Below, one piece after another: positions 1,833-42,639 of a stretch of DNA of 64,000 bases (within the stretch, counting starts at the first letter, position 1; each line of letters begins with the position of its first letter). The DNA comes from Phoronis australis. Lineage: Eukaryota; Animalia; Phoronida. Below the pieces are notes generated by a model that made no database searches, was not told the origin of the DNA, and was given only the letters and a program-made list of their open reading frames with translations. Where the stretch lies: assembly GCA_002633005.1 (NCBI GenBank), contig NMRA01000530.1, forward strand, positions 200,072 to 264,071. The letters are read 5' to 3'. Made by a program: the position numbers and the translations under genes.

Positions 1833-2310
1833 TCATGTGAATGAATCTTTAACGCGTGCGAAACACATATACATGTAGCGGGATAGGCGACAAGAGTTAA
1901 ATACTACTACTGCGATTACCCCCGACATAAAAGCAACTAAAGACTCACAGTAGCAACCACAGCCACGTTCGTCTTCAATCGCAGACTTGTCATCTGGTTG
2001 ATGGTGACTTATTAGCGCATCATCAACACAATCAGTCTGGTTTTGACGCGTGCTTCTAGTACCGCGTCTCCGCTTTCCGCAGCAAAGGCGTTTAGGCAAA
2101 GGAATTTGACCAAAGAAAACGTTGCCCAAAGGACCCATGGTTTTTTCGGCGTGATTCAATCCTTTCTGTCCACTGTCATTGTCCTCCGGGTGTTTGTACA
2201 CCAAGTAGTAGCCAACGTATATTTTAATGTCGTAATGCGTTAAGGCGAACTGTTTTATAAGGTCTGTGCAAGCCATACACGGTGACAATCTCGTGAAGAG
2301 GTGGATGGTC
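1833..2310 (-). CDS. Last coding exon of secreted AID/APOBEC-like (SNAD-type) Zn-dependent deaminase: SPCxxC motif, polybasic site, C-terminal hydrophobic segment
   Basis: Acceptor ctgttgcAG ends at 2311. The exon reads (R)TIHLFTRLSPCMACTDLIKQF...IKIYVGYYLVY, which is the beta-strand + SPCxxC + helix + strand pattern of the deaminase fold. It joins the 9560 donor in phase 2 (AG|G = Arg). Stop at 1833-1835. Confidence 0.85.
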
Positions 2311-2689
2311 CTGCAACAGATAGGCATTAAAGTGCTGCTTTCAAATTATTCTTTATGCAGTGAGTCGAGAAATGACGCTAACAAGGGAATTAGACCGTAT
2401 TACAAATTTATGTAGCACGTGAGCTCATTCTTAAGAATTTAAAAGTAATGTAATAGGCTTAAGCAGGGGGCGGATCCAGGATTTTNTTTTTTCCATCAAA
2501 TAGCTATAAAGCAGTCGTTGTTTTTCGACATTTCAACTGATAAAACATTTGAATATGATGCCAATAACACATAATTTTATTTCAAACAATTTGTTATATT
2601 GCCTCGAGTTTTTATGGCAAAAACAACTAAAAGATGAAATGATTGTCCCCTAAATTTTTCTTATTTCGAAATTATGATAAAAAAATAAA

Positions 2690-2910
2690 AAAATGCGTAG
2701 AAACCTTAAGAAATTGAAGTACTCAAAAATCCAGAAAATGATTACTTATGCTAACCTAAGAAAATCTGATAACAAGTGACTATAATTTAAGCGGTTAACG
2801 CATTAAATTGACATTGTATAGTAAAATTAATGCGTTTTCAAAAGGATTCAATCAGAACTGGCTCTTCGGTAACCCATGTAAACTTCACTTTTTTGCCCCA
2901 GGTGCCTTTG
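2690..2910 (+). repeat. Dispersed repeat, diverged copy of 38570-38800
   Basis: Colinear shared blocks: aaattgaagtactcaaaaatccagaaaa vs aaatttgaggtactcaaaacccagaaaa; cgttttcaaaaggatt vs cgttttcaaaatgatt; ggtaacccatgt...aggtgcct vs ggtaactcatgt...aggtgcct. Confidence 0.6.
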
Positions 2911-4399
2911 TTCAGGCGGCTGTTGCGGAAAAACTGTTTGATCCCCGCACTTGAACAAACTCAGTTTCGTAGGCAAACACAAAGCCACAAAGCATGAGCA
3001 ATTCCATATAAAAATCAGATGGTGGGCTATATATGCAAAATCACCAATTTTTTGAAACTTAGCACATCAGCTGACCTTGTCAAAAGAAACCTGAGCCTGA
3101 TTTTTTAAGAGTTTCTGAGTTTGTTTTAAACCTTTTTACGACCCCTTTGTACTTTTTCTGAAAAGTAGCAAATAAAAGACTGGGAAGTAGGTGACTTTTT
3201 GTCAACAACAACACATCTTCGCTTCACGCTATTGAAAAAATAACTATACAGCAGAAAGAAGAAAGAATAACATACAAGAAAATTAGTGCGGATGGATTTA
3301 TTGATTTTTATGTCCTCTCATTTTAGCCTACAAAAATGTCATTTTCACTGCTTATTATTAAGGCCATTTTTACGCATTTTTTATCGCTCTCCCAAATCTA
3401 TATCGGATTCTTTTGGAACATGAGTTAACTTCCATCTGTTACTGCTGTCTTTGTTCATTCCAACGCAAGAATAAAAAATCTTGTCTCTTTCATAGTTTTT
3501 GTACAATGAGTCTTTTACATAACTCTCACACTTTTCTGCCAATCTGTGACTGTCAGTTACAATAAAAGACTCTAGGAGGCGCTACTCGATTGTGCAATTA
3601 TCTATCGACCAAGATGCCAAATAGAACAAATATCATTCGTTTTGCTACATCAGTGAAGAAGGAGATCATGGGAAGCTGTATGAGATTTTTTCTTCGCGGT
3701 TTTTCAGTTTTGCTGGTGCAAAAATAAAAATCTATTATAGGATTACAGAACTTAAAAGTCAATTTTAATATACTGATGAGTTAATAATACAACCCCAATC
3801 ACCATCTCATACTTCAGAGAAGCAGGTTTTATTCTTATTAAGGGTGCCCATTACCCCTTGCTTGGTCAGTTAATGAACACCGGCGTAATGGACTAAGAAT
3901 CCCAGCACTGCCTGTAGGGCATGCTGGTCCATTTTCAGACCTCCTTGACAAGTCCCTGTATATGCGCTTGAAAAAGTCCTCTCAAACTATTTTAGCAGAG
4001 TTCATACTAAAACTAATCAAGATCTTCGAGATCACTAGTGAAAAGAGGACGGCGGATAGGAGCAGACGTATCGTGTTATTGGACATACAAAAGGTCACGC
4101 AATGCTTCTTGTACTACACAAAAGCTGCCGAGCATTGTGGCAGTGCGCCAGTGGAATTTGCAATTTCAGAAAAATAACAGTTACGGATATTTACGATTGA
4201 AAACATAGTAATTTCAGTGATATCCAAGTTACCAGCTTTCCAAACCAGTATTTAAACAATTAGATGCTGTTGCGACTTACCAGCTATAAACGTTTCATAA
4301 TATGTAAATTCCGTTCATGCAGCGGACTCAAAACCACAGTTTCTTGAAGGTATGCTAGGTTTAGTGTATGTACGCAACACTTCAAAAAACCGCAAAATA

Positions 4400-5440
4400 C
4401 ATCGAATCCATTCCAAAACAGGAACATGTCATTGTTTCTTTAATAGAAAGCTAGTTACCAAATCCAATAAAAATCCGTCAAGGAATTTAGAAGTAAAAGA
4501 GGAAAACAAAAAGAATGAAATTGCCACTAGGGGGCACAGATTCATTGGAAAGCCATCGTCGCCGGCGTTGTTAACTTCACATAAATACACTTACTAAAAT
4601 TAATCAAGATCCTGCAATGGGTTTAGGAGATACAGCTATGGGCGCAAAAACAAAACTGCCACTAACGGGTGCCACACTAGTCGATGTCGCTGGAAAATCA
4701 TCATTAACCATCCTCTTCACACAAAGAACATATATGCTAATTTTCAAAATTATGCTTAGAGTGGGTTTGGTTGGCAGAGGGGCGGACGCCAAAAACAGAC
4801 TAGGAAACAATACAAATGGCCCTTAGATAGCGTAAAATATGTCAAATCATCCAAAAACGCCGTTTCTGTAATAAAAAGCTGTTAACCAAATTTCATAAAA
4901 ATCCATCAAGGAACTTCAGAGAAACAGCTGAGAAAACGAAAAAAAAATGAAATTGCCACTAGGGGGCACAGTGTTTGTTGGATCCGTCAGAAAGTCGTAG
5001 TCGTCCGCTGTCAACTTCATATAAATACACTTGCTAAATTTAATATAGATCCTGCAATGGGTTTAGTAGAAACAGCCATGGGCGCTACAAAAAACAAAAC
5101 TGCCACTACGAGGAGTCAAAGTCGTCGGAAGGTTATCGTCAACCGTTCTCTTCACACTTAGAACATATATGCCAATTTTCACAATCATTCTATGAATGAT
5201 TTGTTTGATAGAGGGGCAGACTCGAAAACAGTAAAAATGGCCACTGGGTGGAACAAAATACCTCAAATACATCCGAAAATGCGCGAGGATAACGCCATCT
5301 CCCTAATAGATGGTTATTATCCAAATTTCATGAAAATCCGTTGAGGAGCTTTGAAGATACAGAGGTAAATGTATAAAACTAGGATTGTCACTAGGGGGCA
5401 CACCAGTTGTTGGATCCATCCGAAATTTGTCGTCATCTGT
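4400..5440. repeat. Tandem array, ~2.5 copies of a 432-bp unit (three ~144-bp subrepeats), Helentron/DINE-like internal satellite
   Basis: ttg(c/t)cactagggggcac recurs at 4521, 4953 and 5385. ccaaatttcat(a/g)aaaatcc and ataaatacactt...aaattaat...agatcctgcaatgggttta also repeat at the same period. Confidence 0.8.
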
Positions 5441-5989
5441 CATGTGGGCTCATAAAAACCCGGGTTCCATTCAGAAACTAATGAGGTGCACATCTGAATA
5501 CGACTGACCGACTGCATGGCAAAAAGTACTGAATAAGTGAAAATTATGATCAACTGCCATTACAATTTTAAAGGGAACTGAACTGCATTGTCAATTTTTG
5601 AGTCGTGGGGTATAATCATGAGTGGAGCTTCTTTCCATACTTAGAAAATATTTTGACGCAAATATTACAATACAAATTACGGCAAGCAATCACCTCAGGG
5701 ATGGTCGCCATCATTGCTCTGGCATAATCTACTAGCTTCAATGCGACCCGAGCAGACTAGTGGAATGGCAAATCTGGTGACGATTTCATCAGCTCTCACA
5801 AGTCATATGTACTAAAGATGTGTGTAAAGATGGGTCACCTTTTGTACAATTATGTTACATACTTTTTCGTGGTGTTTCGGTATAAACATGGGTCACACCT
5901 TTGAACCATTTGAATAAATGTGGATCACAATTTACAGACTTGCAAGGTATAACATTGTTGCAATTTTCAAAGTCCAGCAGCCCATACTA

Positions 5990-6570
5990 ACCCGCTAACC
6001 GGATAGGCCTATCAGGTTTGTGCACTTGGGCAGTCAGTAAGTCGAAAGTTGTCAGCGAGAGCTAATAAAATATTCTGAACTGAAGTCATGACCTCTTGAC
6101 TCAGGCCAACAGTTGTGATAAATATGAAGTAACTTTTTAGCAATTGCTACAAACATATTACTTGCACCAACAGGGACTAACAAATCAAACTGGCGAAAAA
6201 TCTTTTGCGACACGCGAAAGTCAACGCCCCGTTCAATCTTCCGCTTCGTTTTAGCTGTGTGTTCTGGATAACAGCACGTCAATTTTTGTCTAAAGCCAAG
6301 TCCAAACTCATGTCGATGTGTAAGACATATAACGGGAAATTTCCATTGGTTTGCCAGTCCAGCCTCCTCTCTCCAGCTCTGGCAAGAATCAACTGTAATT
6401 CCGATATACTTTCAAACTTCTGTGGCACTTTGCATGACATCAGATGACTTCTGACGTCTTTAACACAGCTAATGAAGGCCGAATTTCCTCCGCGATCCCC
6501 CTTTAGTAACGAAAATTGACCAAATGTACAAGAAGGAAATTCACGCCTCCCTATTCTTTGCAGTGACAGG
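5990..6570 (-). mobile_element. Decayed DNA-transposase N-terminus, Sola3-like
   Basis: Frameshifted peptides SELQLILARAGE, CCYPEH...ERGVDFRVSQKIFRQFDLLVPVG and ILLALADNF resemble, as I recall them, the Cys-rich N-terminus of invertebrate Sola3 transposases. Superfamily assignment is from memory. Confidence 0.5.
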
Positions 6571-7171
6571 AAGTCATAGGCGGATTTAGGAGGGGGGGCC
6601 AAAGAGCAGTTTTACTGACATGAAAAAATGCAAAATATGACTTTATAGTCAAATAGGTCATATCCCGGTAACCAAAGGTCATTGTGTGCAAATATTGCAG
6701 CAATGCATTTTGGGCCAGCATCCCAACACGTGCACAAAGTATTAGCTCTGTATGAATTTTTGAGTATATGGTGATTTTTCGTTTTCATATGGTTTTTATA
6801 TGGAATCATTCTTAAAAACTATTCAACGATAGCTGTGTCCGCACCCCTTAGGTCGTCTACATGTATTTCAATGGCCAATTTTGTTTTGTTTGATCTTGAT
6901 GTGTTTTAACACAATTAAAATTAGATGAACGACTTGCAGAAGGCGAGTTCAGTGAGTGTGACCACCGAACACCCCTGAGATAAAATGGTGTTCAGATGTC
7001 CTATAGCTCATATGTAATTTACGATGACGCCAATGCAAGTTAAGGTAACCTTACACTAAGGCGATGCTAAGGTGGTGCAGTTTTTCTAACGTCTTGTTAC
7101 TTACGAAACAATGTTTCAAATGTTTGAAATGTGCACAGGTTTTCACGTTCTAATAACTGCAAGGCACGTTT

Positions 7172-7887
7172 TCAGGTTTTGTTTCAAGGTTAAGAATCAT
7201 AAAATGAAATTTAACGCAAAGCAATAGGGCTCTTCCGTATTATACAGCGGCACTCTAATCTCGTCGTATTTACGCAAATTGGTGGGCGCAATATCTGCCT
7301 TACACTTAAATTTTCTATTTCGGGCCATTAAAGTACACGTGTTCTTTGTTGTTTTACTATTCCTTACCCTTTTTCCTCGCCTGAATTACTCTATTCGTCC
7401 TTCCAATGACAAGTAGCATTGGTATTATTAAAGGAACTTTTGATATTTTGTTTGCTGCTCTTGGTCTGTCAAATGCTTTGGAGAAATTATGAGATGCATT
7501 GGTAGGAAAGCTAAACTTTGAAGTGTCTAAGAAGTAGGTCACACCAGTGCAGTGTGCAGTTTTAAACCATATATAAATACCTCCAGCATGACCATGCTTA
7601 TGGGTAGACACAAAACAATGTCAATAACTGACATTCAACATTTGCGNTCAGGTTTTGTTTCAAGGTTAAGAATCATAAAATGAAATTTAACGCAAAGCAA
7701 TAGGGCTCTTCCGTATTACACAGCGGCACTCTAATCTCGTCGTATTTACGCAAATTGGTGGGCGCAATATCTGCCTTACACTTAAATTTTCTATTTCAGG
7801 CCATTAAAGTACACGTGTTCTTTGTTGTTTTACTATTCCTTACCCTTTTTTCTCGCCTGAATTACTCTATTCGTCCTTCAAATGACA
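7172..7887 (+). repeat. Near-identical ~240-bp direct duplication (7172-7411 and 7648-7887) across an N gap
   Basis: The two copies differ at only a few bases and the second starts right after the N at 7647. This suggests a haplotype overlap or scaffolding artefact. Confidence 0.85.
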
Positions 7888-8082
7888 ACGAAATATTACT
7901 GCTGTGCTGTGGGCTGCAACATTCCCCTGTACGAATTTGACAAATATCCGCAGATACGTGATGTAAATAATTTCGTCCCCTTCCCGACATCAAGCAAATG
8001 CAAGAAAATCCGGAGCGAGTGGATAAAACAAATTCGTCGGAATCCCTATTTTCTGCCTTTTCAATCTCGCACTATTCAGTGA
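7882..8082 (+). pseudogene. Truncated THAP DNA-binding domain (transposase N-terminus)
   Basis: MTTKYYCCAVGC...FVPFPT...RSEWIKQIRR...FLP matches the THAP CxxxxC, FP and W pattern. The final CxxHF is lost to a stop. Confidence 0.7.
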
Positions 8083-8342
8083 TTAAAATCGAGAATACTT
8101 CCACAGCCTTGCACCATGACGGTTTCAAACATAACCTATGTTTTGAAAATGTGCCTGCCTTTCCAAAACTGTGTTAATGGAAACGCGCGTTCTTAACTCT
8201 GTAACAAAGCAGGACGTATCGCTGTGTAATCCTAGACTGTCCTACCAACTGATGTGCTGACGATGTGACACTGATTCTCTTGAATTCACCTTTTGGATTT
8301 TTGGTAGTGTACCACAAAATAAATGACAGAAACTGCATTTAA

Positions 8343-9007
8343 AAGAGTCAAAATACTAAAATATGCGTTTTTACAAAATATGTTCTTTGATACACAAAAA
8401 GAACTGTTTCTTGGTGATGTCAGTGTGCCAAACTGTGTCACTTTCATAGAAACTTAGACAGTGACCGCCGTCTCTATTTGTCCAGTGGAGACGGTGTAGC
8501 TCCTAAAGGAGCTTCATACGCCGGAAGTTTTTCAGAGAATGTCTCGCACCTACTAAAACATCAAAGTCATGTTGTTAAATACCTTTTGTGCGTAGAGGAC
8601 ACCTTAGGAGGCCATCGATGTCTTTACTTCTCTCAAACTCGAACACATACTCCCGTTATGTAACTTTTTCTTTGGCAGTCCCTCGTCCACTTCCCAAAAT
8701 CGGTGACTGGACATTTTTACACTGCGCACGCTAAGGAATATGACGTCATACCATCTGCCGCACGCAAGTGGCCAGTTTGCGATTTTGGAAACTGAACGAG
8801 GGACTGCTCGAAGAAAAAAGTGATGACGGGAGTATTTGCCCAAGTTGGAAGTAAAAAGACTTTTTTCATCAGTGTGAGGCATAATTCGCCGAAAAGCTTC
8901 TGGCGTATGAAGCTGCTATCGCCGGGATGTTCTCTACTGAGACAGCTAAAGGCGGTGGTCACTGTATAATAAAAACGCAACACGTTAGTTTAGCCACCTC
9001 GCCTCTT
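8343..9007. mobile_element. MITE with long imperfect TIRs and TTAA target duplication (Kolobok-like termini)
   Basis: TTAA|AAGAG at 8339-8347 and CTCTT|TTAA at 9003-9011. Inverted blocks: acagtgaccgccgtct vs acagtgaccaccgcct, and gcttcatacgccggaagttttt vs gcttcatacgccagaagctttt. Confidence 0.75.
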
Positions 9008-9559
9008 TTAAAGTCCGCAATCTATATGGGCAGCCCTTGATTTTCACACAAAATTTTAAAGAAATATTGACGTGCATATAACACAGCTGTAGTGAACCGA
9101 ATTTTATTATTCGAACACCGATTTCGGTTACCTACTTCTTGCGTTTTACATATATCGGAAATCTTTTATTCTTATTTTTGTACTTTGAAATGCTAAGTTA
9201 TTTATTGCATTTTATGATCCTGCTTGCAAAGCTTGAGGGATGTGTTCTTGAAACATTATCACTAACCGATTTTAAGCCCAGACTCCTCTGGCCATGCGCA
9301 TAATAGTAGCCGGGATATCTGGGCATCGCCTGTTCATTAGGGTCAGTGCAACTGGTAAATCCACGCATAGCATTACTGATACTTGTTTTTACTGGCAAAT
9401 GACCTGAGTTGTCATTATCAGTTGAAATACTCGGAAATGTACACGTGACTCTCTAAGCGACAGTTCTCCTTATATTGTGGTACATCTGATGGCCTCGGCG
9501 GACTCAAAGAGAAAGCGCTCAAAATCACTGTTAGGATTGTGCAACATACTGAGACTTAC

Positions 9560-9945
9560 CTGACTTTCTCTCCAAGATTATTTACTAGCTGCCCAAGCGT
9601 AGAACCAAAAATCTGTTTCTCCGCATGTACGGCCGGGTTTTTTTTGCGCAGCCGCACCCAGTAGTTCATTTTCGTCTCAGGTTGAAGATCATCCCTATAC
9701 ATTTTGTTTTTGTTTACGGAATTCTCGTTTGTCCTGAAGCAGGGTTGGAATGGGTTCTCAATGGAGTTTCCAGCTTTGTTCAAGCTAACTGCTGCATACT
9801 GCGTGTTGCCATTGGTCCACAAATGAAAGAACTGTCCCATGAGAACAAGGAATTCACGATCTTCCTCTGCTAATTTATTGTGTCCTTCAGTAACAAGGAA
9901 AGACGCAGAAATCAGCGCACAGACGATAAGAATTCGCATGGCCAT
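9560..9945 (-). CDS. First coding exon of the secreted AID/APOBEC-like deaminase: signal peptide and HAE motif
   Basis: Acceptor ttctttcAG ends at 9952 and the ATG is at 9945. MAMRILIVCALISASFLVTEG is a signal peptide, followed by QYAAV, NYWVR and VHAEKQI. Consensus donor AG|GTAAGT at 9560/9559. Confidence 0.85.
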
Positions 9946-11030
9946 TGAACTCTGAAAGAAGAACATTATTTAAATTTACAAGAAACTCAGACTTGTTGGT
10001 ACAGCAAATTTTAAATTGTTAAATTAGGCAGTCACGTAGACAATTTGCAAAAGGTCCTCTTTTCTACAAACTGTAGAGGAGGGATTCATGACATTCTTTT
10101 CGTACGACTTTCCATTAAAGTATATCGAATCTCGAATATTGTACCAAACGAAACAAACTTCCACTAATACTCAGCCCCATAGCAAGATAACAACACCGGA
10201 ACAAGGCGCATACACGGCGCAACTTCAGCCACGTGAGATCAATGTTGGCGTAGAGTTGCACAAATAGGCTAGATCTTGAACCGTAACTTCAATTTATTTC
10301 AGTTGTGACCATGTCAGGGGTGCAATTTCGTTTATGTGGGTTCAGACTTTTATATATTAACAATTTTCACTCATTATGATTTGCGCATTTTTTGTGGAAA
10401 AGGAGATTTTCATGCCAATAACATAACAATTTTGAGCTTCAGGGGCGCATTATGCTTCCCTTCAGCCAGTCACAAGCTCAGAAGTCCAGAAGGTGCAGAA
10501 TATTTTCAATGCCCCCATTTGTGTTCTTGTGGGTTAATGCTTCATACTTTTTAAATTCGTCTGTCGAATGTTTTTTTTTTTCTTGCATATGGCATGGAAT
10601 ACTGACATTCTTCAAAAGATTAAATATCTTTTTACTTTATATTTCTAGCAGAAACATATCTAGATGATACACTGTGTAATACCTACATGTATCACCTAAT
10701 GAAGAAACAATGAAGCACAGAAAAATACTCCAAAATTGATACAAAATATCTACGTCACCACAAATATCTCGCAAGTGACATATTTTGTTGGTGAATATTT
10801 GTTTTCGATTTTACATTATGAGATATACCGTAGTCATATCAGAATATTGCTGGATAGTTGCTACCCGGGCCATATACATGTACATGTATCATCGTATTAT
10901 AGATGAGCAATCTATGGATACTACTGTAATGAGTAGCAACTAGAAAGGAAGAACGACTTATTGTGTTTGTGTCAGGAGCTGTCCTCTCGCGGTGCATGGA
11001 ATTCTTCTGCCTTTATTGAGTTATTGCTCG

Positions 11031-26032: not shown

Positions 26033-29000
26033 CTAAAATATAGACATACTTCGATTGTTTAAATTCCCCTGAGATAAGTTTATTTTTGGCTGTGTTCTAT
26101 CGTCTGCCATGTCTACACTTGACTGAACTTTATGCCATATCATCTGCGACTCATGAAAGCTCTCATAAGCTAACCTTTCTTTCTTCAAATGCTTGTACAT
26201 TTCACTCTTTTTAGATAAACAAATCGCAATTTCAGGATGATTGGAGTCATTTCTGTAGACCCTTGACCATTCCCTCAACGATTTGTCGTAGTGCTCTGCG
26301 GCTTCTTCGAATTTTCCCATGTCTTCGAGCTCGTTTGCAATCTGATACAAACATTCTGCGATACTAGCGTGATTTTGATTGTGATGAATCTTCCTCAGTG
26401 TTTCTAAACATTGCTGAAATTTCTTTTCAGCTTCTTGGTGTTTGTCCATTTTGCTGCAAACACGTCCTATGCCATGTAAGCACGATACAATGTGAGGATT
26501 ACCCAATTTTCCGTAAATTTTCTTCATAAAACGTAACGATTTTTGGTAGTAGCTCTCGGCCAATGGGTATTCTCCCAGCTCATAGCAAACATTGCCAGCG
26601 TTATGCAAACAGAAGGCTACTTCAGGATGAGGTACATCACCGTTAATACGTTTCATCATGTCCAACGAATCTTGGTAGTATTTTAAAGCCACGTTTTTCT
26701 CGCCTTTTTCACTATACACGTTCCCAATGTTGTTCAACCTGGATGCAATTTCGGGATGATCAATGTCACCGTAAATTCTTTTCACCATTTCCATCGAGTC
26801 TTTGTAGTATCGTAAGGAGGAGTCGACCTGACTCATTCGACTGTGCACACTAGCAATGTTGGACAAACTCGATGCAATGTCGGGATGATCTATATTTCCA
26901 AGAATCCTCTTCCTCATTTCCCAAGACTTTTCAAAGTATTCCAAAGCTGACGTGTACTTACCCATGTCATAATACACACCCCCAATGTTGTTTAAACACG
27001 ATGCAATTTCACTGTGGTCTTCTACACCATAAGTGGTGTGCATTACTTGCAACGATTCTGTCAGGTGTTGCAATGCTGACGCATGCTGACCCATCGTGTT
27101 ATACACATTTCCAATGTTATTCAAACAAGGTGCTGTCTTAGCTTGATGTCCATCACCGGGAAGTCTTTTCCACATACTGAGCGCATCTTTGTAGTGTTTT
27201 AAGGCTAGCTCGTACTCATTCATCTTCATGTACATACTTCCAATGTTGCTAAGACTGGATGCAATGTCGGTGTGATCGATATCTCCAAGAATCCTCTTCC
27301 TCATTGTCCACGATTCCACGAAGTATTGCGTGGCTGAAACGTAATCACCCATCTCGCTGTACACACTTCCAATGTTATTCAAACACGACGCTATTTCATG
27401 GTGATCTGCGCCATAGCTCATTTTCATTAAATCAACCGCTTGCTTGAGTTGTTGTAAGGCTATGACGTGCTTACCCATCTTGCTGTACACATTTCCAATG
27501 TTATTCAAACAAGATGCTATGTGAGCTTGATTTCCATCACTGGGGAGCCTCCGCCACATATTCAGCGCATCTTGGTGATATCGTAAAGCTGATTCGAAGT
27601 CATTTAACTCACTGTATACATTACCAATGTTACAGGAACACGAAGCGATATCACGGTGGTCAGAACCATGAGCAATCCTCTTTCTCATGGCTATGGACTG
27701 GTTATAATATTCCAATGCTTGTTTGTATCTTTTCATCTCTTGGTATGCATTACCGACGTTATTAAAACCTGACGCAATGTCAGGATGATCACTTTCGCCG
27801 TGAATTCTTTTCAGCATGTTCAAAGAGTCATGGCAGTACCGCAAAGCTGACTCGTATTCACCCATGCCAATGTATGAACTACCAATGTTATTCAAAAATG
27901 ATGCAATTTTAGGGTGATCTTCACTATAAACCCGTTGCATTAAATGCAACGATTCTTCGTGGTGCTGTAAGGCTAACGCATTCCTGCCCAGGCTGTTATA
28001 CGCAGTGCCAATGTTACTCAAACAAGCTGCGATGTCAGCTTCATTCTCATCAGCAGGATGGTTGTGCCACATATCTAGGGCCTCTTGGTAGTATTGCAAA
28101 GCTGACTCATACTCATTCATCTCATTGAACCCATTACCGAGATTACTGAGGCATGATGCAATTTCAGAATAATTTGTTTCTCCTTCAGCACTCTTCATTA
28201 AACGCAATGATTCTTGGCAGTGTTCTATGGCTAAATCAAATCGTTGCATTTTGAAGTATGTACTCCCAATATTATTCAAGAGAGGTGCAAACTCTAGACT
28301 ATCTGTATCGCCGTGAATTCTTTTCTTCATACTCAATGAGTCTTGAAAGTATTTTAAAGCCAGATCGTATTGACCTTTGTCACTGTACACGGTTCCAATG
28401 TTGCTCAAACACGATGCAATTTCCGGGTGTTCTTCCCCATAACTCTTTTGCATTAAGCGCAACGATTCGTTGAAATGCTGTAAGGCTAGCGCATGTTTAC
28501 CCGTCTTTCTATACACATTGCCAATGTTATTCATACAGGGTGCTGCTTCTGTTTGATTTCCATCACTGGAAAGTCTTTGCCACATACTGAGCGCGTCTTG
28601 GTAGTGTCGCAGTGCTGACTGATAGTCAACTAATTCACTGTACACATTACCAATGTTACTTAAACACGACGCGATGTCACGATGGTCAGCGTCTCCAGCC
28701 ATCCTCTTTCTCATATCTAAAGACACTTTATGTTGCTCCAGCGCTTGTTTGTATTTTCTCATCAATTGATATACATTACCAATGTTATTAAATGCCGACG
28801 CAATATCAGGATGATCATTTTCACCGTGAATCCTTTTCATCATGGTCAATGAGTCTTGATAGTACTGCATGGCCGATTCGTATTTACCCATATCACTGTA
28901 CGCACTACCAATGTTGTTTAAACACGACGCAATTTCAGGGTGATCATCAGTGCCATAAGCTTTTTTCATCAAATTCAACGATTCTACGAGGTGCTGTAGG

Positions 29001-31239
29001 GCTAATGCTTGCTTACCCATCTTTTGATATACAGTGCCGATGTTGTTTAAACACGATGCCATGGTGCCTTGACTGGAACTTCCATGAAGTCGTTTTATCA
29101 TAGAAAGCGAGTCTGTGTGATACACCAAGGCGGTTTCGTAGTCGCACATATTACTGTACGCGTTCCCAATGTTATTCAAACATGAAGCAACGGTGTCGCG
29201 ATCCGCACCACCACAAATTCGTTTTTGCATGCTCAAAGACTCTTCGTAGTGTTTCAACGCTAAAGCAGGGGAGCACATTTTACTATGCACATTTCCAATG
29301 TTATTCAAACATGACGCTACGTCGTTGTCATCTCCATTTCCTATGATACGTCGTCTCATATCTAAGGAGTGTTGGCAGTATTCCAGGGCAACTTTGTAGT
29401 TACCAACATTTAAGTGTGCACAGCCGATCTTGTTCAAGCACGACGCAATTTCTGGGTGGTCACTTTCTTTATAAATCGTTTTCATTAAGCTCAAGGACCT
29501 TTCGTAGTATGTTAAGGCCATGTCATGCTTGCCAACTTTGCTGTACATATCAGCAAAGCTGCACAGAAGTGACGCAACGGTACGTTGTCTAATACCATGT
29601 ATACCTGAAGGTTCGATGACTATCGAGGTTTGTGCTGACGTATCACAACTTTCAGCTATACTGTCAATCAAATGCGTTGATTCACCCAGCCATTCCAATG
29701 CTTTTTTCTGCACGACGTCATCTATGGGGGCATCTAGTAAGCTCAAGTAATTAAGGAGCTTTTCAATATCATGAAAGCTTTTCTCTGTTGTAGATTGTGG
29801 CGAAATGAAAAGTTTGCCAGCCCTCAAAAGGTCTTCGTCAAAAAACTGCTGTTTGTTCGTGTCAAACGCAAAATCAGGACCTTGTGTACACAGAAAGACC
29901 AAGAGTGGAAAAACCGTGCAATGGTATCTCATGATCAGAAGATTGTAGTTGCTGTTCTCAGGCTCATCGCCAGTCAAGATTTGGTTCAACGTAAGCAGTG
30001 CAACTTGCTGGTTATCATTGTGACCAACCACCCTCAACAGTGTGTTTATTGAAAACGCCACTTGCAGATTATGCTTTGCTTTTTCTGACAACATTTCCTT
30101 AGATTCCATTTCATCAAGCGCGTCCCAAATGTTGTCGTTTTCCAGGCAAAATAGGGATTTTAATGCGGCAAAGAGCCCATCAGGGCAATTTTTTATTACC
30201 TTCGTCGGTTCCTTGTCTTCTTCCTCCAGGTGTCCACGCACCATCAACCTGTATGTTTCAAGTAATACGTCTCCACCTTCACTACCATCTATTTGTAGAA
30301 CATGAGTTAACCCATGACCACTTGGCAATGATAACCTATCACCGAATACACCTGCCATGTAACTGGGAGTCCCGACTAATGTGCAGCTTTCTCGTTTTGT
30401 TGTGCGAGAGTTGGGAGGAGTACTATCTAGTGAAAACCCGCTACCAACAGCGTCATCCACAAACCAATTTCCACCAGGTACATCAAGGTCATTTAGTGAC
30501 GTGATATTCAAAGTACTGACGTCTGTTTCTCCCATGTTCAGGCCAATCATGTGGACAAGTTTCAGCGTGTTTTTGAAGTAGTCAATATCTTTGCAGTCAT
30601 CGTCTAAAAGAATTCCCAACTTAATTTCGGAATATGTTGTAGCATCGCCTCTTGCCAAAGACCCAAAGGCAAGTGTAGCATAGTCGCAATTCGCTGGGCC
30701 TAATATTTCTCTAGTCTGGGAGCAGAAATTCTTACACAAAGTCTTCACTTCAGAGTTCAAATTTTCAAGGAGTTTTCTAGTTTCTTCGACAAACATTTTT
30801 TCAAACTCAATTCGTTCATCCGTTGGTGCATCAAGTGTGAATTTGGCTTCAAAGTCGTCTAGTATCTGTTTGGCCTTAGAGGTTATGTCACGCCTACATG
30901 TTTCAAGCCTTTCTTTATTGTTAGGCTTGAAGTCAATGGGCAGCGTATCTTGATCTTTTGATATGGCTCGGCAGAATGTGGCTTCATTTTCTCTCAACAA
31001 CATTTCAAGATCCCGTTCGAGACTTGAATCTTTTACCCTAACTAAAGCAGCGTTATATAACGCAGAAGCGGTTACAAAGTGTTGCGTGGACTTAGTCAGC
31101 AAACCTCGTTCTTTGTGAACACTTCCTATTTTCTGAAGTATTTCACCAACAGACACCGAACTCCCCTCAGTTGATGAGAGTTCTTTAAGTGATGCTGCGA
31201 GTTTTTTTTCCATGGCATCCAGCCGTGCGAGTCGTTTTT
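26033..31239 (-). CDS. Giant terminal exon: degenerate GlnD/DUF294-like nucleotidyltransferase, helical domain and ~27 TPR repeats (42-43 aa, kinesin-light-chain/NPHP3 type)
   Basis: Open frame of 5.2 kb with motif AFGSLARGDATTYSEIKLGIL and repeats of IASCLNNIGxVY...ALxYYxxSLxM.KRI.G..DHP. Phase-1 acceptor gtatttcAG ends at 31240. An alternative internal start gccATGg lies at 31213. Confidence 0.93.
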
Positions 31240-33810
31240 CTGAAATACAGCAACGTTCGGGATATATCAAGTGATGAAAGATAGTTTAGATTTGAGACGC
31301 CATGTTTTTATCGAAAGGTAGTAGAGGTATCCCATCAAATTTTCAGAACATGAAAACGAGTATAAATCACGAAACCAAGTTTTCTTCGGACCTAGAAAAG
31401 CTGAAAAATTTTGATATTTCTTAAAAACGTAAAAAAGAAGACCAATGGATACGTCATGATGGACCCAGCTCATGATTTTTTATTGTCTGTACGTGATCAC
31501 GGTACCAGTTATCACGACTACATGTAATTTTGATCCGAATTCAAAATGAATCTGAGGGGTTATGGGCACGTAATTTGTTCAAATCTCTGAAATAATACAT
31601 GTCGATTGGACCGGGCCCGCCAACATGTAGGTACCTGTCTTTATATATTGGCGCACTGCTGTTGCATTGCATTTTTGTTCTTCCGAAAGTACCTCCAATG
31701 TTATGTGTTTTCTTTTTGATAAAATCGGTAGGCTGGATCTTGATTCCACAGAAAACCTGATTTGAATTCCCTGCCACAGGCTGCTATCGGCGAGTTACCC
31801 GGTCGAGGTTTAAATGTTTCCAAATGATGCCGATTAAGGATCAGAATTTGAAATGCCAGGCCTGAAACGTCGCGGAGGTATGTCCCGAGGAAGGCGGGCT
31901 CATCATTGACTGTCGACAGTGCTTTTTTCTCCTGCAATCATCACTGCTCCACCTGTACATTATTTAGTAGTATCATAACGTATGATGTCATAATTTAAGA
32001 ATGCCATAAAACAGTATGTGTATATCGTATCCTGAGAGTTTGAGAGTAAATTACCACAAACAGCGATTCTAGAGCACCATTAGTGATTGCACCCTTCATG
32101 ATATATGTACATGTACTCAAAACGTATATGGTTTTAGCAAACGCAGCTCCAAAAACGTGCACGGAAACAATCTATTCAGCAGATGCTGTATACTGCGTGT
32201 AAGGGGAATGTGTCAATTTTGATCGCTGTATACACACTGTGGTCCGAAAAGTATCATATTTAGTACGTAACCTATGTCCATATTTTTCGAAAGGTGTACA
32301 CAATAGGCCAGCTAGTATCTTTTGACATCATCGTGAAGCAACTTAGACAGCCCACTAAACAGCAATAGATAATTAAAATTTATCCCGATAGGAGCTAAAA
32401 GCGGTCCACCTTTTTTAATCATAACTCCCACTCCCTCTGGGAATTGCCCACTTCCATTTCAAATCCTATAATCTCGACTGTTTCAGTTTTCTGACATATT
32501 TCGGACAATATGCTGGTCGTTCTGCTCTGCAAAATATTTGTGTAATTAAACGGCAAAAAATCTTGCTTGTGAAAGACAGTGAGTTGATTTTGCCTTGGAA
32601 ATTCTTAGACACTCCTCACGAAGTCTCGATATTGTTGGGAGATCTGACTGAAAGAGGGCCTACGGCTGTGACCATTATTTGAATTAGCTACATTTCCGGT
32701 CTCCAGATATGTGACAACCAAACGTTCACTTGTTTCGGGCACACCATATTTGTGGAAAACTATACCTCAACGATTTAATCTGCTGCTGTTTACCATACTG
32801 TCCAGGACGATTCATGAATATGTCAAAAACTTTGGTTGCATTTTCCCACTCCCTGAATTCGCTCCCATTCTCCCTTTTAATCTTATATTCTAAAGGGGGG
32901 GGGGGACGATTCTTAATAGAAAATCTGGCAAAACGTGAAAATTGCTTTTTGGTGTATTTTTCTCACCTTGCTTTAACTCATTTGTTTGTCTTTTTTGCAT
33001 GGGTAATAAATTGGATATACTGACCAATTAACAAAATCTGATAAATCATGAGTCTCTGGAGGTTCAGATTCTGTAGTTCCTTGAGAAATTTGACTTTTAA
33101 CTTCTCCTGTCAAATAACTGACAATGCGGGCACTTGTCTCGGGCCACCTCTCAAAGAAAGGATCCCGTCTGAGAGTTTGCCCTTGACACGGCAGGCATGC
33201 TTCGTAAATACTGTACTCCAAATATGAAAGGCTATACCAATCAATATGGAAAGGAATGACGGTTGATACTGTAACCGGGTCAACTAACGTCCATCATACG
33301 ACTTCATAAAAACAAAATCAGAATGGAAATTGACCCCATCTTTGGGTCTTTCCGTGAGTAGCTCCTTCAGAAAAAGAGTGCCTTCAGTTACCTCAGCAAC
33401 AGCTGGGATTCACATCAAATTCTATACATTGAACTGAAAAAGAGAAAGCATCTCTTATGGGAGAGGATTTAAAAATATGTGCAATACCAGTTTTCGGCAT
33501 TTTTCGAAGTATATGCTATTAATTGCTCAAGCAACGACCCATGCTGCATTATTTTATATTTGTGGTCTACAAAAAATTCCCGGCTAGGGTCCCCAAAGCG
33601 TAAATTGACAGTGTTATCTACATTTTTAGATACTTCCTTGTGTTTTCTTTCTCCGAATGTTTCTGTTCTACGGCTTGTCGCTACACAGGTTCCATTCTCA
33701 CGTTTGCGCTTAGTCTACGCCCACCCTCTTTCCATGCCTCCCCCAACGCCACCGAATCTCCCCCGCGTCCCCCTCTTTCTACGCATATGCACTTGCCATC
33801 TATACTGTAC

Positions 33811-40888: not shown

Positions 40889-41342
40889 TCATTTCAAAAG
40901 ACTTTTATTCGAAAGTGGTTCTAAAATATTTCGAGGGAGATATTTATCTAAACCAAACTACAGTATGATGAAATAAAAATATTTCATCGTCAAGACGAGA
41001 ACTTTTTGGCATTCTCTGTAACATGCCACCTATTAATTTATGCAATATTTTGTTAAGCTGAGGTAAAATTGCAGATTTCATCAACATATGGGAATATTGG
41101 ATATGAAGAAATTCATACAAAAACATTTTAATTTCTTTAAAATTACGTTTCTTTTATTATTTCATATCCTTAGTAAAATCCCGTTGTCATATTCCATGAA
41201 TTGTAACATGACTCGGCCAACATTTTTCGGTTTTGCATGTTTTCGTATATAATGCCTCTTAATTATCTTGAAAACTTGAAGCAATGCGGAAAAGTTGCTC
41301 CAGATTACGAAATATACAAATATACCAAACCTGAAATCTCAC

Positions 41343-41663
41343 CCTTCTCCATATCTTCGACGGTAAAGCTCAACTCTAAGGGAGACCCACTTGTCATCTG
41401 TTTTATCTTGTCGGTTAGCAGAGCGTTTTTTATTCCTTCAGTCAAAAGTCCTCCGCATAGCTTTTGCTTAAACTGCTCCATAGCTTCTTCACTGTCGGAT
41501 GCTATCACGAGTTCAATGCACCCCTTTTTGATACATACTACTTTGACTTTACCACCAGACACGCTTAGTAAATATTGTTTTAAGGTCGAGTCATCTGTTC
41601 GTTGTTCTTCAATGATTTTCCATTCCACGAAGTCGCCAAGCTCACTTTCAATCTTCAATTTTG
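41343..41663 (-). CDS. Internal exon of the TPR gene, TRADD-N-like domain
   Basis: tttgttctAG acceptor, G|GTGAGA donor, 321 nt, phase 1-1. VKVVCIKKGCIELVIASDSEEAMEQFKQKLCGGLLTEGIKNALL resembles the GS/CIxLxV..S.EAL..L....SG.L signature of TRADD-N-like domains. The domain call is from recall. Confidence 0.7.
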
Positions 41664-42639
41664 CTAGAACAAACATGGATACAAAAGAGATTGAATACCA
41701 TAGTTAACAACAATTGCTGCATTTGACAGACGTCACCGGTTCTGCAGGGTAAACCGGCTACTAAGACATCAGAAGAGCGTTAGGTAGATCTTGCTTCGTG
41801 AGAGAAAAGTAAGACTTCACAAGACCTTGCAAAATAAGAACAAAAACGAGTTTTTCTCAAGCATTCTTAGGAGTCTAATATCATATTAATGTATCCTACC
41901 AGAATGGCGGCCACTGAACTGAATGATCGGTGAAGTTAGATCGTTTATCTGTGTGGTTGGATTCACTGGGTTAAATAGTAAAGGTTTTTCAAGCTGGTGT
42001 CTTGCGGTCTACGGAGCTCAGCTGAGCATCAATCGGTTGTCAATGACGACTTCCGGTGTATGGATCAATCAGGTGCCATGAATAAAACCCTCTGTTGACA
42101 TCCTAACCGGTTGAGGTTGGGCAATTTGACCTATTCGTATACGTTCAACCCTGCCGGTATTGATTGAAGACACCATGCTGTTGCAGTTAACTATATCGCC
42201 TCAGGCTGCTGATGTGGGCGTTATCTAAATAATCAGACCCACCATAAACACATAATTTTTAGTTTTAAAAGTTTTTCAATAACATGGTTGAATAGCTCGT
42301 CAAAAGTACAAGTGAGTAGGCTTTTGAATTTTGAGAATCAAACAAAAATGTGACATTTACTATCTATAATGTTCGTGTAATAGAGTTGTAATTTTATGTT
42401 CATTATTAAATCTGCAGGGTGTGCAACTCAATTAGGCCAATTTTCAAACCCTCAGGCCCTTGTTTAAGTTTAACATGAGCCAAGTGTAATCGTACAATTC
42501 TTGCCATGACTTACCTGGTTGAGCCAGCGGAACCGGTCAAGACAAAGATAATTAACATAGTGTAAAAGGATATCATTGAGAACGTACAGTAGATACACTG
42601 TAGATGCGAAAAATACAATTTTTGGGACTTAGTATAAAA

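Follow-up and report, generated by a model that had tools for sequence, protein, structure and literature searches.

Does a deaminase whose catalytic fold is followed by a basic run, an acidic spacer and a hydrophobic segment leave the cell as a soluble enzyme, or is it made as a membrane-tethered precursor that a protease releases? This question arises at one end of the 64,000-nucleotide stretch of DNA analysed here (the window). The initial annotation had listed a series of motifs behind the deaminase fold, all of which we found on the minus strand, inside 1836-2100 or at its border: CCGKRRRGTRS (aa 205-215, 2084-2052), DCVDD (2033-2019), DDKSAIEDE (1994-1968), GCGCYC (1964-1947), the hydrophobic 15-mer SLVAFMSGVIAVVVF (1943-1899), and a short basic tail, which comprises 21 aa with four K/R and one D and is closed by the stop codon at 1835-1833 (tail and stop, 1833-1898).

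The tail motifs end a spliced and expressed gene

The motifs are the end of a two-exon minus-strand gene (9945-9560 joined to 2310-1833) that encodes 287 aa. Exon 2 sits in a 170-codon minus-strand frame whose start is intronic, and a phase-2 GT-AG intron of 7249 bp (2311-9559) separates its acceptor (TTGCAG, at 2311) from the exon-1 donor (GTAAGT, at 9559). Nine RNA reads of run X7 exit exon 2 at 2313 and run on into exon-1 letters from 9563, and the depth at the exon-2 acceptor falls from 11.9 to 0 in this run (48 reads placed, about 19% of its reads being used). Exon 1 (9560-9945, aa 1-129) carries a predicted signal peptide, the QYAA strand-1 landmark (9801-9790), C69 and the HAE triplet with zinc ligand and catalytic Glu (9627-9619), and exon 2 supplies SPCMAC (2285-2268) and the second half of the deaminase domain (aa 130-206, 2079-2310), which extends over strand 4 and loop 7 to the IPLPKRLCC end. 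Both exons were covered in one of the three RNA runs (X7, depth 7.8-9.8; 7.8-8.1 over exon 1, and 4-8 reads over 1840-2050), with first mates on the plus strand only, which in a usual stranded library means RNA from the minus strand. Runs X5 and X6 had zero depth over either exon, a silence that may reflect tissue, condition or presence/absence of the gene. Three DNA runs from one sample showed 0, 1 and 3 differences from the window coding sequence and no coding indel, and the tail frame is thus not an assembly error. Gene model, splicing and stranded expression are demonstrated by these data.

The N-terminal leader (aa 1-21, 9883-9945) reaches a mean hydropathy (KD) of 2.66 over the 15 residues aa 5-19 and has small residues at -3 and -1 for G21; by this heuristic, it would likely be cleaved after G21 and possibly after T19. 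Atlas support for a signal peptide is weak, since exon 1 returned only prepro-peptide look-alikes, all scoring below 0.9. An acceptor-like TTTCAG lies 8 bases upstream of the ATG, with a branch point, a pyrimidine run and the CAG in 9946-9975 on the minus strand, suggesting an additional 5' exon that is probably untranslated.

A SNAD-like deaminase assigned to neither SNAD1 nor SNAD4

The zinc motif, which is demonstrated across the confirmed splice, consists of H107-A-E109, 29 residues and P139-C140-x2-C143, in agreement with the definition of AID/APOBEC-like deaminases (AADs), HxEx25-30PCx2-4C, in PMC11004436, and the catalytic residues are intact. A second HAE (aa 182-184, 2153-2145, minus strand) was rejected as zinc ligand, since it comes after PCxxC, in the wrong order, and probably arose by chance. 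Exon 2 alone matched eight deaminase Pfam families weakly (E 4e-5 to 0.03, all below curated cut-offs), led by Toxin-deaminase (4e-5) and SNAD4 (5e-4) and followed by NAD1/APOBEC (2e-3 to 3e-2); exon 1 scanned alone matched no Pfam family, and Pfam SNAD1 was absent on either exon. These scans, like the AF2 models, were run exon by exon. BLASTP of exon 2 against an insect AAD gave 9e-8, and the succession of strand 4, aromatic loop 7, helix 4 and strand 5 matches by eye; the single-exon AF2 models had pLDDT values of 44.6 and 40.0, too low for a fold search.

Searches for homologues brought almost nothing to light. HMMER with exon 2 against 1.84 billion representatives gave a single hit, KAJ9578442.1 (E 2.9e-4), and word-index searches returned 0 hits for exon 2 (93-298 aa), for exon 1 (225-2000 aa) and for the second repeat of KAJ9578442.1 (142-454 aa). 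Metagenome scans with each exon and a viral scan yielded no homologue, exact look-up matched 0 of 8 window ORFs, Atlas held no usable match for exon 2, phmmer against PDB gave nothing below E 0.15, and tblastn detected no paralogue within the window. SNAD1 sequences were returned by none of the homologue searches, and neither an orthologue nor a paralogue turned up among proteins, metagenomes or viruses.

The domain resembles that of SNAD1, a secreted AID/APOBEC-like deaminase. QYA[AVY] and IP..RC stand, by eye, at the same places as in three SNAD1 rows of Fig. S1 of PMC5889660; these patterns, chosen after looking, occur once and 11 times, respectively, in the window's 127,996 six-frame residues. 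With the landmarks in place, the fold would end at C205/206, leaving the basic site just outside it. The protein also shares with SNAD1 the signal peptide (here predicted), the HxE...PC order, a long insert before HxE (58 residues from QYA to HAE, with room for a SNAD1-type helical insert, although the model is unreliable here), a core end with Cys without evident classical helices 5-6, rapid amino-acid change, and few exons (2-4 in fish SNAD1). In contrast, the SNAD1 Cx3C active site is absent, CMAC being Cx2C, and the CxxC hairpin after strand 5 is missing: from the C---CxxC---C signature of the neomorphic strands 6-7 only the first Cys (C205/206) is there, and the sole CxxC is catalytic. 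Where SNAD1 has this hairpin, the present protein carries a tail of 81 aa that is made up of the basic site, the acidic stalk and the hydrophobic segment. From the SNAD1 Cys pair (loop after strand 1 and start of strand 3), C69 is present and the strand-3 Cys is missing, and the host is likely an invertebrate whereas SNAD1 was reported from jawed vertebrates. The SNAD4 traits of a (predicted) signal peptide and Cx2C are present, but the Trp traits in loop 7 and at the end of strand 5 are not; loop 7 has Tyr, window exon 2 is Trp-free, and the same residues set the protein apart from the secreted AADs of sponges (SNAD4) and dictyosteliids. Since it lacks both the SNAD1 Cx3C and hairpin and the SNAD4 Trp features, we filed it in neither family, although it looks like a SNAD and probably functions as one.

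A basic site, an acidic stalk and a marginal predicted anchor follow the fold

The basic linker (aa 207-217, 2046-2078, minus strand) contains R-X-X-R at aa 211-214 and 214-217, and the full consensus R-X-[KR]-R occurs nowhere in the 287-aa protein. The best predicted convertase site is R214/S215 (2057-2055), with Arg at P1, P4, P5 and P6, Ser at P1', and a location beyond the last fold residues. An accessible part of PMC12547723 describes furin as TGN-resident and R-X-X-R as its minimal site, for which upstream basic residues compensate, and this arrangement is found here as R211-x-x-R214 with R209 and R210 upstream, outside the fold. A loose furin rule flags R84, within the fold, too. The R214 site also satisfies Nakayama's two-of-three rule for furin. 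The R-X-X-R site of the initial annotation can thus be narrowed to R214/S215 with its extra upstream basics, which the expressed variant keeps, and we consider cleavage by a convertase at R214 moderately probable from these sequence features. Behind it, the acidic stalk (aa 218-251, 1944-2045, net charge -7) bears the sequon N219, C223 and the GCGCYC cluster. The acidic spacer of the initial annotation was borne out, with a pI of 4.4 for aa 215-251 against 9.5 for the cationic enzyme part, aa 22-214 (22.3 kDa).

The hydrophobic segment (1890-1943, minus strand) has a 15-aa core (aa 252-266), immediately preceded by E251, and reaches 18 residues (to aa 269) with N-S-C. Its mean hydropathy (2.56 over 15 residues, 2.03 over 19) makes it a marginal predicted transmembrane anchor, and the Hessa sum, computed without position weighting, was -0.8 for 15 aa, +2.3 for 19 aa and +1.1 to +2.9 for 17-21-mers. 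The flank charge over aa 267-273 is +2 in the window and +3 in X7, against -2 and 0 before the segment, i.e., the positive C-terminal flank of type I proteins is present. A terminal hydrophobic signal without charged tail, as GPI anchoring would have it, was not found; 14-21 residues with four basics come after the segment, and the tail end for this reason appears to fit type I better than GPI. The strands into which single-sequence AF2 folds the segment have a pLDDT of about 55 and carry no information. We lean slightly towards the insertion of aa 252-269 into a membrane. The proposal of a type I membrane deaminase therefore holds in part: the N-terminal signal-peptide-like segment makes the layout possible, but the anchor is marginal (19-mer KD 2.03, Hessa +2.3). 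For the same reason, shedding from the cell surface, also proposed initially, is not implied, and cutting in the trans-Golgi fits equally well; short membrane anchors often remain in ER or Golgi, so release need not occur at the surface.

To judge how readily such a tail could arise by chance, we compared it with 8000 noncoding-like stop-free 81-mers and with 8000 shuffles of the tail, using thresholds set from the observed values, which makes the rates optimistic. The basic site by itself is weak, because R-X-X-R is common in shuffled tails (61%, and 22% of noncoding-like peptides); a furin-type site was present in 28.5% and 13.8%, respectively. Among noncoding-like peptides, 2.0% contained a 15-mer with KD of at least 2.56 and 4.9% a 19-mer of at least 2.03; for shuffled tails, the 15-mer rate was 0.01%. 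Site plus downstream hydrophobic segment dropped to 0.09% of noncoding-like peptides and 0 of the shuffled tails, and the complete ordered pattern was seen in 0/8000 and 0/8000. The order of the tail elements is demonstrated by the sequence, and by these rates the ordered arrangement is not one that chance would yield.

The expressed variant diverges in the catalytic half and retains the site

The transcript in run X7 differs from the window at 43 positions in 1600-2484, 38 of them shown, and 36 are coding, in 33 exon-2 codons; 31 of these codons are non-synonymous (one a stop) and 2 synonymous, at a nucleotide divergence of about 8%. This list pools the major form with a minority change, Q149K (5/17 reads; also in DNA runs X2 and X3). 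In the core (aa 130-204, 2085-2310, minus strand), 20 of 75 codons changed, all non-synonymously and none synonymously, with clusters around helix 3, strand 4 and loop 7. Over aa 130-282, pN came to about 0.09 against a pS of about 0.02 (binomial test, p 0.003-0.015, depending on the assumed ts/tv), an excess that loses significance (p 0.16-0.39) if the five hidden differences are all synonymous. The pattern suggests diversifying selection on the catalytic half, and the excess of amino-acid changes there points to an immune arms race; the 20-to-0 ratio of codons would suggest one of the APOBEC3 kind, outside the cytosol. RNA editing was rejected as the origin of the differences, since all 12 kinds of change occur.

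Residues R209-R217 are protein-identical in X7, and K208Q weakens the R211 site, not R214. Throughout aa 209-244, there are 0 non-synonymous and 2 synonymous changes; because two changes in 108 nt (about 2%) match the synonymous background, this constancy is no proof of constraint, and purifying selection on the spacer was rejected. The GCGCYC cluster undergoes C246R, Y249H and C250R, by which two of its three cysteines are lost, and it was discarded as a conserved tether; both window codons have TG where X7 carries CpG, so these differences are probably CpG decay in the window. The idea of a tether in the Cys-containing stalk survives in another form, C205/C206-C223, on either side of the basic site, being better candidates, and C205, C206, C223, C248 and C269 have no listed amino-acid change. 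In the hydrophobic segment, L253I, V254A and S268F keep or lengthen the run, aa 255-266 have no listed change, and L271R adds a positive charge after it. Behind the segment, X7 has lost 6 nt in frame and meets its stop earlier, which leaves 14 aa with four Arg, and the frame remains open over 76-81 codons of the tail in window and X7. Site, stalk and anchor segment outlast the divergence of X7; the GCGCYC cluster does not. A YxxΦ sorting motif in the tail was rejected as conserved, for in X7 it is either lost or changed by the 6-nt deletion, according to where the gap is put.

About one-third of the X7 reads match the window at 2195-2263, all differ at 2290, and nearly all differ at 2075-2154. 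We read the pattern over 2177-2290 as mosaic alleles or paralogues, which available portions of PMC5889660 describe for SNAD3.

A possible tethered precursor and its alternatives

The reading that we tentatively put forward, as possible but short of probable, is a predicted secretory cytidine deaminase of AID/APOBEC-like (SNAD1-like) type, made as a tethered single-pass type I precursor and cut by a furin-like convertase at R214 to free a cationic enzyme of about 22 kDa. The predicted signal peptide would take the deaminase into the ER, aa 252-269 would span the membrane with the Arg-rich end in the cytosol, and a convertase in the trans-Golgi, in an endosome or at the surface would cut at R214, upon which the cationic enzyme would leave the acidic stalk and the short anchor behind. 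In line with what has been suggested for SNADs, the freed enzyme would then have an immune role, acting in a lumen or outside the cell on the nucleic acid or cytidine of invaders. Of these steps, entry into the secretory path is the one in which we place most confidence. The weakest are a masking of the basic enzyme by the acidic stalk and a putative C205/206-C223 disulfide across the 16-residue basic loop, which would hold the nicked enzyme until reduced.

The segment's marginal hydrophobicity leaves room for a secreted pro-enzyme without stable anchor, in which aa 215-287 would be a C-terminal propeptide, acidic and containing a segment for sorting or transient stop-transfer, that is removed at R214. 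The charge complementarity of enzyme and stalk and the basic site retained in X7 speak for it, known SNADs are soluble in body fluids, and cationic defence peptides can have anionic C-terminal pro-pieces. However, such a hydrophobic 15-mer followed by Arg-rich residues is rare by chance, and X7 makes the segment longer (S268F) and more positive-inside (L271R); we regard a soluble pro-enzyme as unlikely. Conversely, the enzyme could be anchored and never cut, residing as an ecto- or lumenal enzyme in an ER, Golgi, endosome, vesicle or surface membrane, with the basic run serving as a nucleic-acid-binding or flexible linker. The full furin consensus is missing, SNAD1 rows have basic residues directly after the strand-5 Cys, glycosylation at the sequon (N219) or at nearby Ser/Thr could block cleavage, and the insect AAD ends hydrophobic too, without a site common to its two repeats. 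This reading seems unlikely to us given the Arg residues at P1, P4, P5 and P6 and the Ser at P1' of R214, outside the fold, and given that the residues of this site are unchanged in X7 while neighbouring regions changed heavily.

GPI anchoring would place an omega region at G245-x-G247 and make aa 252-266 the GPI signal, with release by furin or phospholipase. Small residues seven positions ahead of a moderately hydrophobic 15-mer, together with a signal peptide, recall the general plan of GPI precursors as outlined in an available section of PMC6726743. But the hydrophobic stretch is not terminal, since 21 aa (window) or 14 aa (X7) with four basics come after it, and omega-to-end would measure 43 or 36 aa. 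Such a distance exceeds the usual length, and we judge GPI anchoring improbable. Finally, the tail may be a recent extension, from read-through or drift, that took the place of the cysteine hairpin of SNAD1 and plays no part in processing or anchoring. No homologue carrying it was found, its end varies freely (deletion, earlier stop), and one in about twenty noncoding-like peptides (4.9%) reaches its 19-residue hydropathy, yet both versions keep 76-81 codons open, the indel preserves the frame, and none of the 8000 null peptides reproduced the ordered pattern, which makes mere drift quite improbable.

The delivery of SNADs, the protection of the producer and the targets of the enzymes count as open questions in the field (PMC5889660, PMC11004436). 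The combination of site, stalk and anchor offers a testable answer on delivery, namely a precursor that is tethered, perhaps masked, and activated when cleaved. Should the host prove to be a non-sponge invertebrate, the gene would bridge the present gap from sponge SNAD4 to vertebrate SNAD1. A bolder version, which we hold to be speculative and unlikely, is that of an invertebrate sister lineage of SNAD1 made as a tethered zymogen, with a furin loop closed by a C205/206-C223 disulfide and the basic enzyme silenced by the stalk, from which nick and reduction would release a mutagenic deaminase in the target compartment alone; if true, SNAD1-like genes would predate vertebrates and a host would be using A-B-toxin-like activation logic in an editing enzyme that is under strong diversifying selection.

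Comparison with known deaminases and processed proteins

A-B toxins have disulfide-closed furin loops, and type I pro-proteins are shed. The succession of a catalytic domain, a basic furin loop (about 16 aa) between two Cys, and an acidic plus hydrophobic part resembles both, in layout and by analogy only; unlike a toxin, the present protein is host-encoded and has a (predicted) signal peptide, and neither a receptor-binding nor a translocation domain was seen in it.

According to available parts of the literature, SNAD1 proteins occur in shark plasma and fish fluids, and secreted AADs are known from vertebrates, sponges and slime moulds (dictyosteliids) (PMC5889660). Majewska et al. 2024 (PMC11004436) predicted membrane anchors in 6 of 38 SNAD1 proteins, N-terminal and not C-terminal, and the available sections of that paper report no GPI, transmembrane, furin or cleavage for SNAD1. 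Krishnan 2018 (PMC5889660) has SNADs only from vertebrates and sponges in its accessible part, and transmembrane, furin and GPI are absent from its main text, a comparison confined to that text (the SNAD alignments S15-S19 may be informative on C-termini); its Table S1 lists neither membrane anchor nor convertase site for SNAD4 and dictyosteliid AADs. The available text of PMC13402138 contains none of six anchor- or cleavage-type terms, and that of Liu 2018 (PMC5956068) neither signal peptide nor transmembrane. Consistently with the initial remark that the tail is atypical for AID/APOBECs, our literature search, whose coverage mostly excluded subscription journals, found no C-terminally anchored or convertase-processed member. 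On the evidence of one locus and a single divergent transcript, the SNAD-like gene is real, expressed and evolving fast, and its tail architecture is undescribed.

This gene is not alone in pairing an AAD with a C-terminal anchor, because both tandem deaminase repeats of KAJ9578442.1, from the cockroach Diploptera punctata, end in a strong hydrophobic segment (aa 242-260 and 497-515, KD over 15 residues 2.9 and 3.0, stronger than here). This protein differs in that the classical helices after strand 5 are kept, the model is partial and without signal peptide, its tails cannot be aligned with the present one, and only one of the two repeats has a furin-type site; to judge from its sequence, it is probably tail-anchored with a cytosolic enzyme. 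The available Table S1 of PMC5889660 does not list a hydrophobic repeat end for the arthropod clade. AADs may thus have acquired anchors at the C-terminus on more than one occasion.

Neighbourhood of the gene

The window has a CpG o/e of 0.87 and few microsatellites, which points to an invertebrate animal as the likely host. A 1750-codon minus-strand frame at 26036-31285 encodes about 25 TPR repeats, presumably preceded by a nucleotidyltransferase-like motif, with no Pfam match over 29500-31285. The translation of an exon at 41308-41703 (minus strand) looks TRADD-N-like to us, again with no Pfam match, and the TPR gene and this exon together suggest an immune-type neighbourhood. [quoted passage not shown] Within the intron of the deaminase gene, a high-copy repeat at 4480-5440 is heavily covered by strand-biased RNA in each of the three RNA runs, with about 80-140 first mates on the plus strand, and a block of about 220 bp is duplicated (7170-7400 and 7650-7870), followed by a weak THAP-domain fragment (7861-8079, plus strand, E 0.009).
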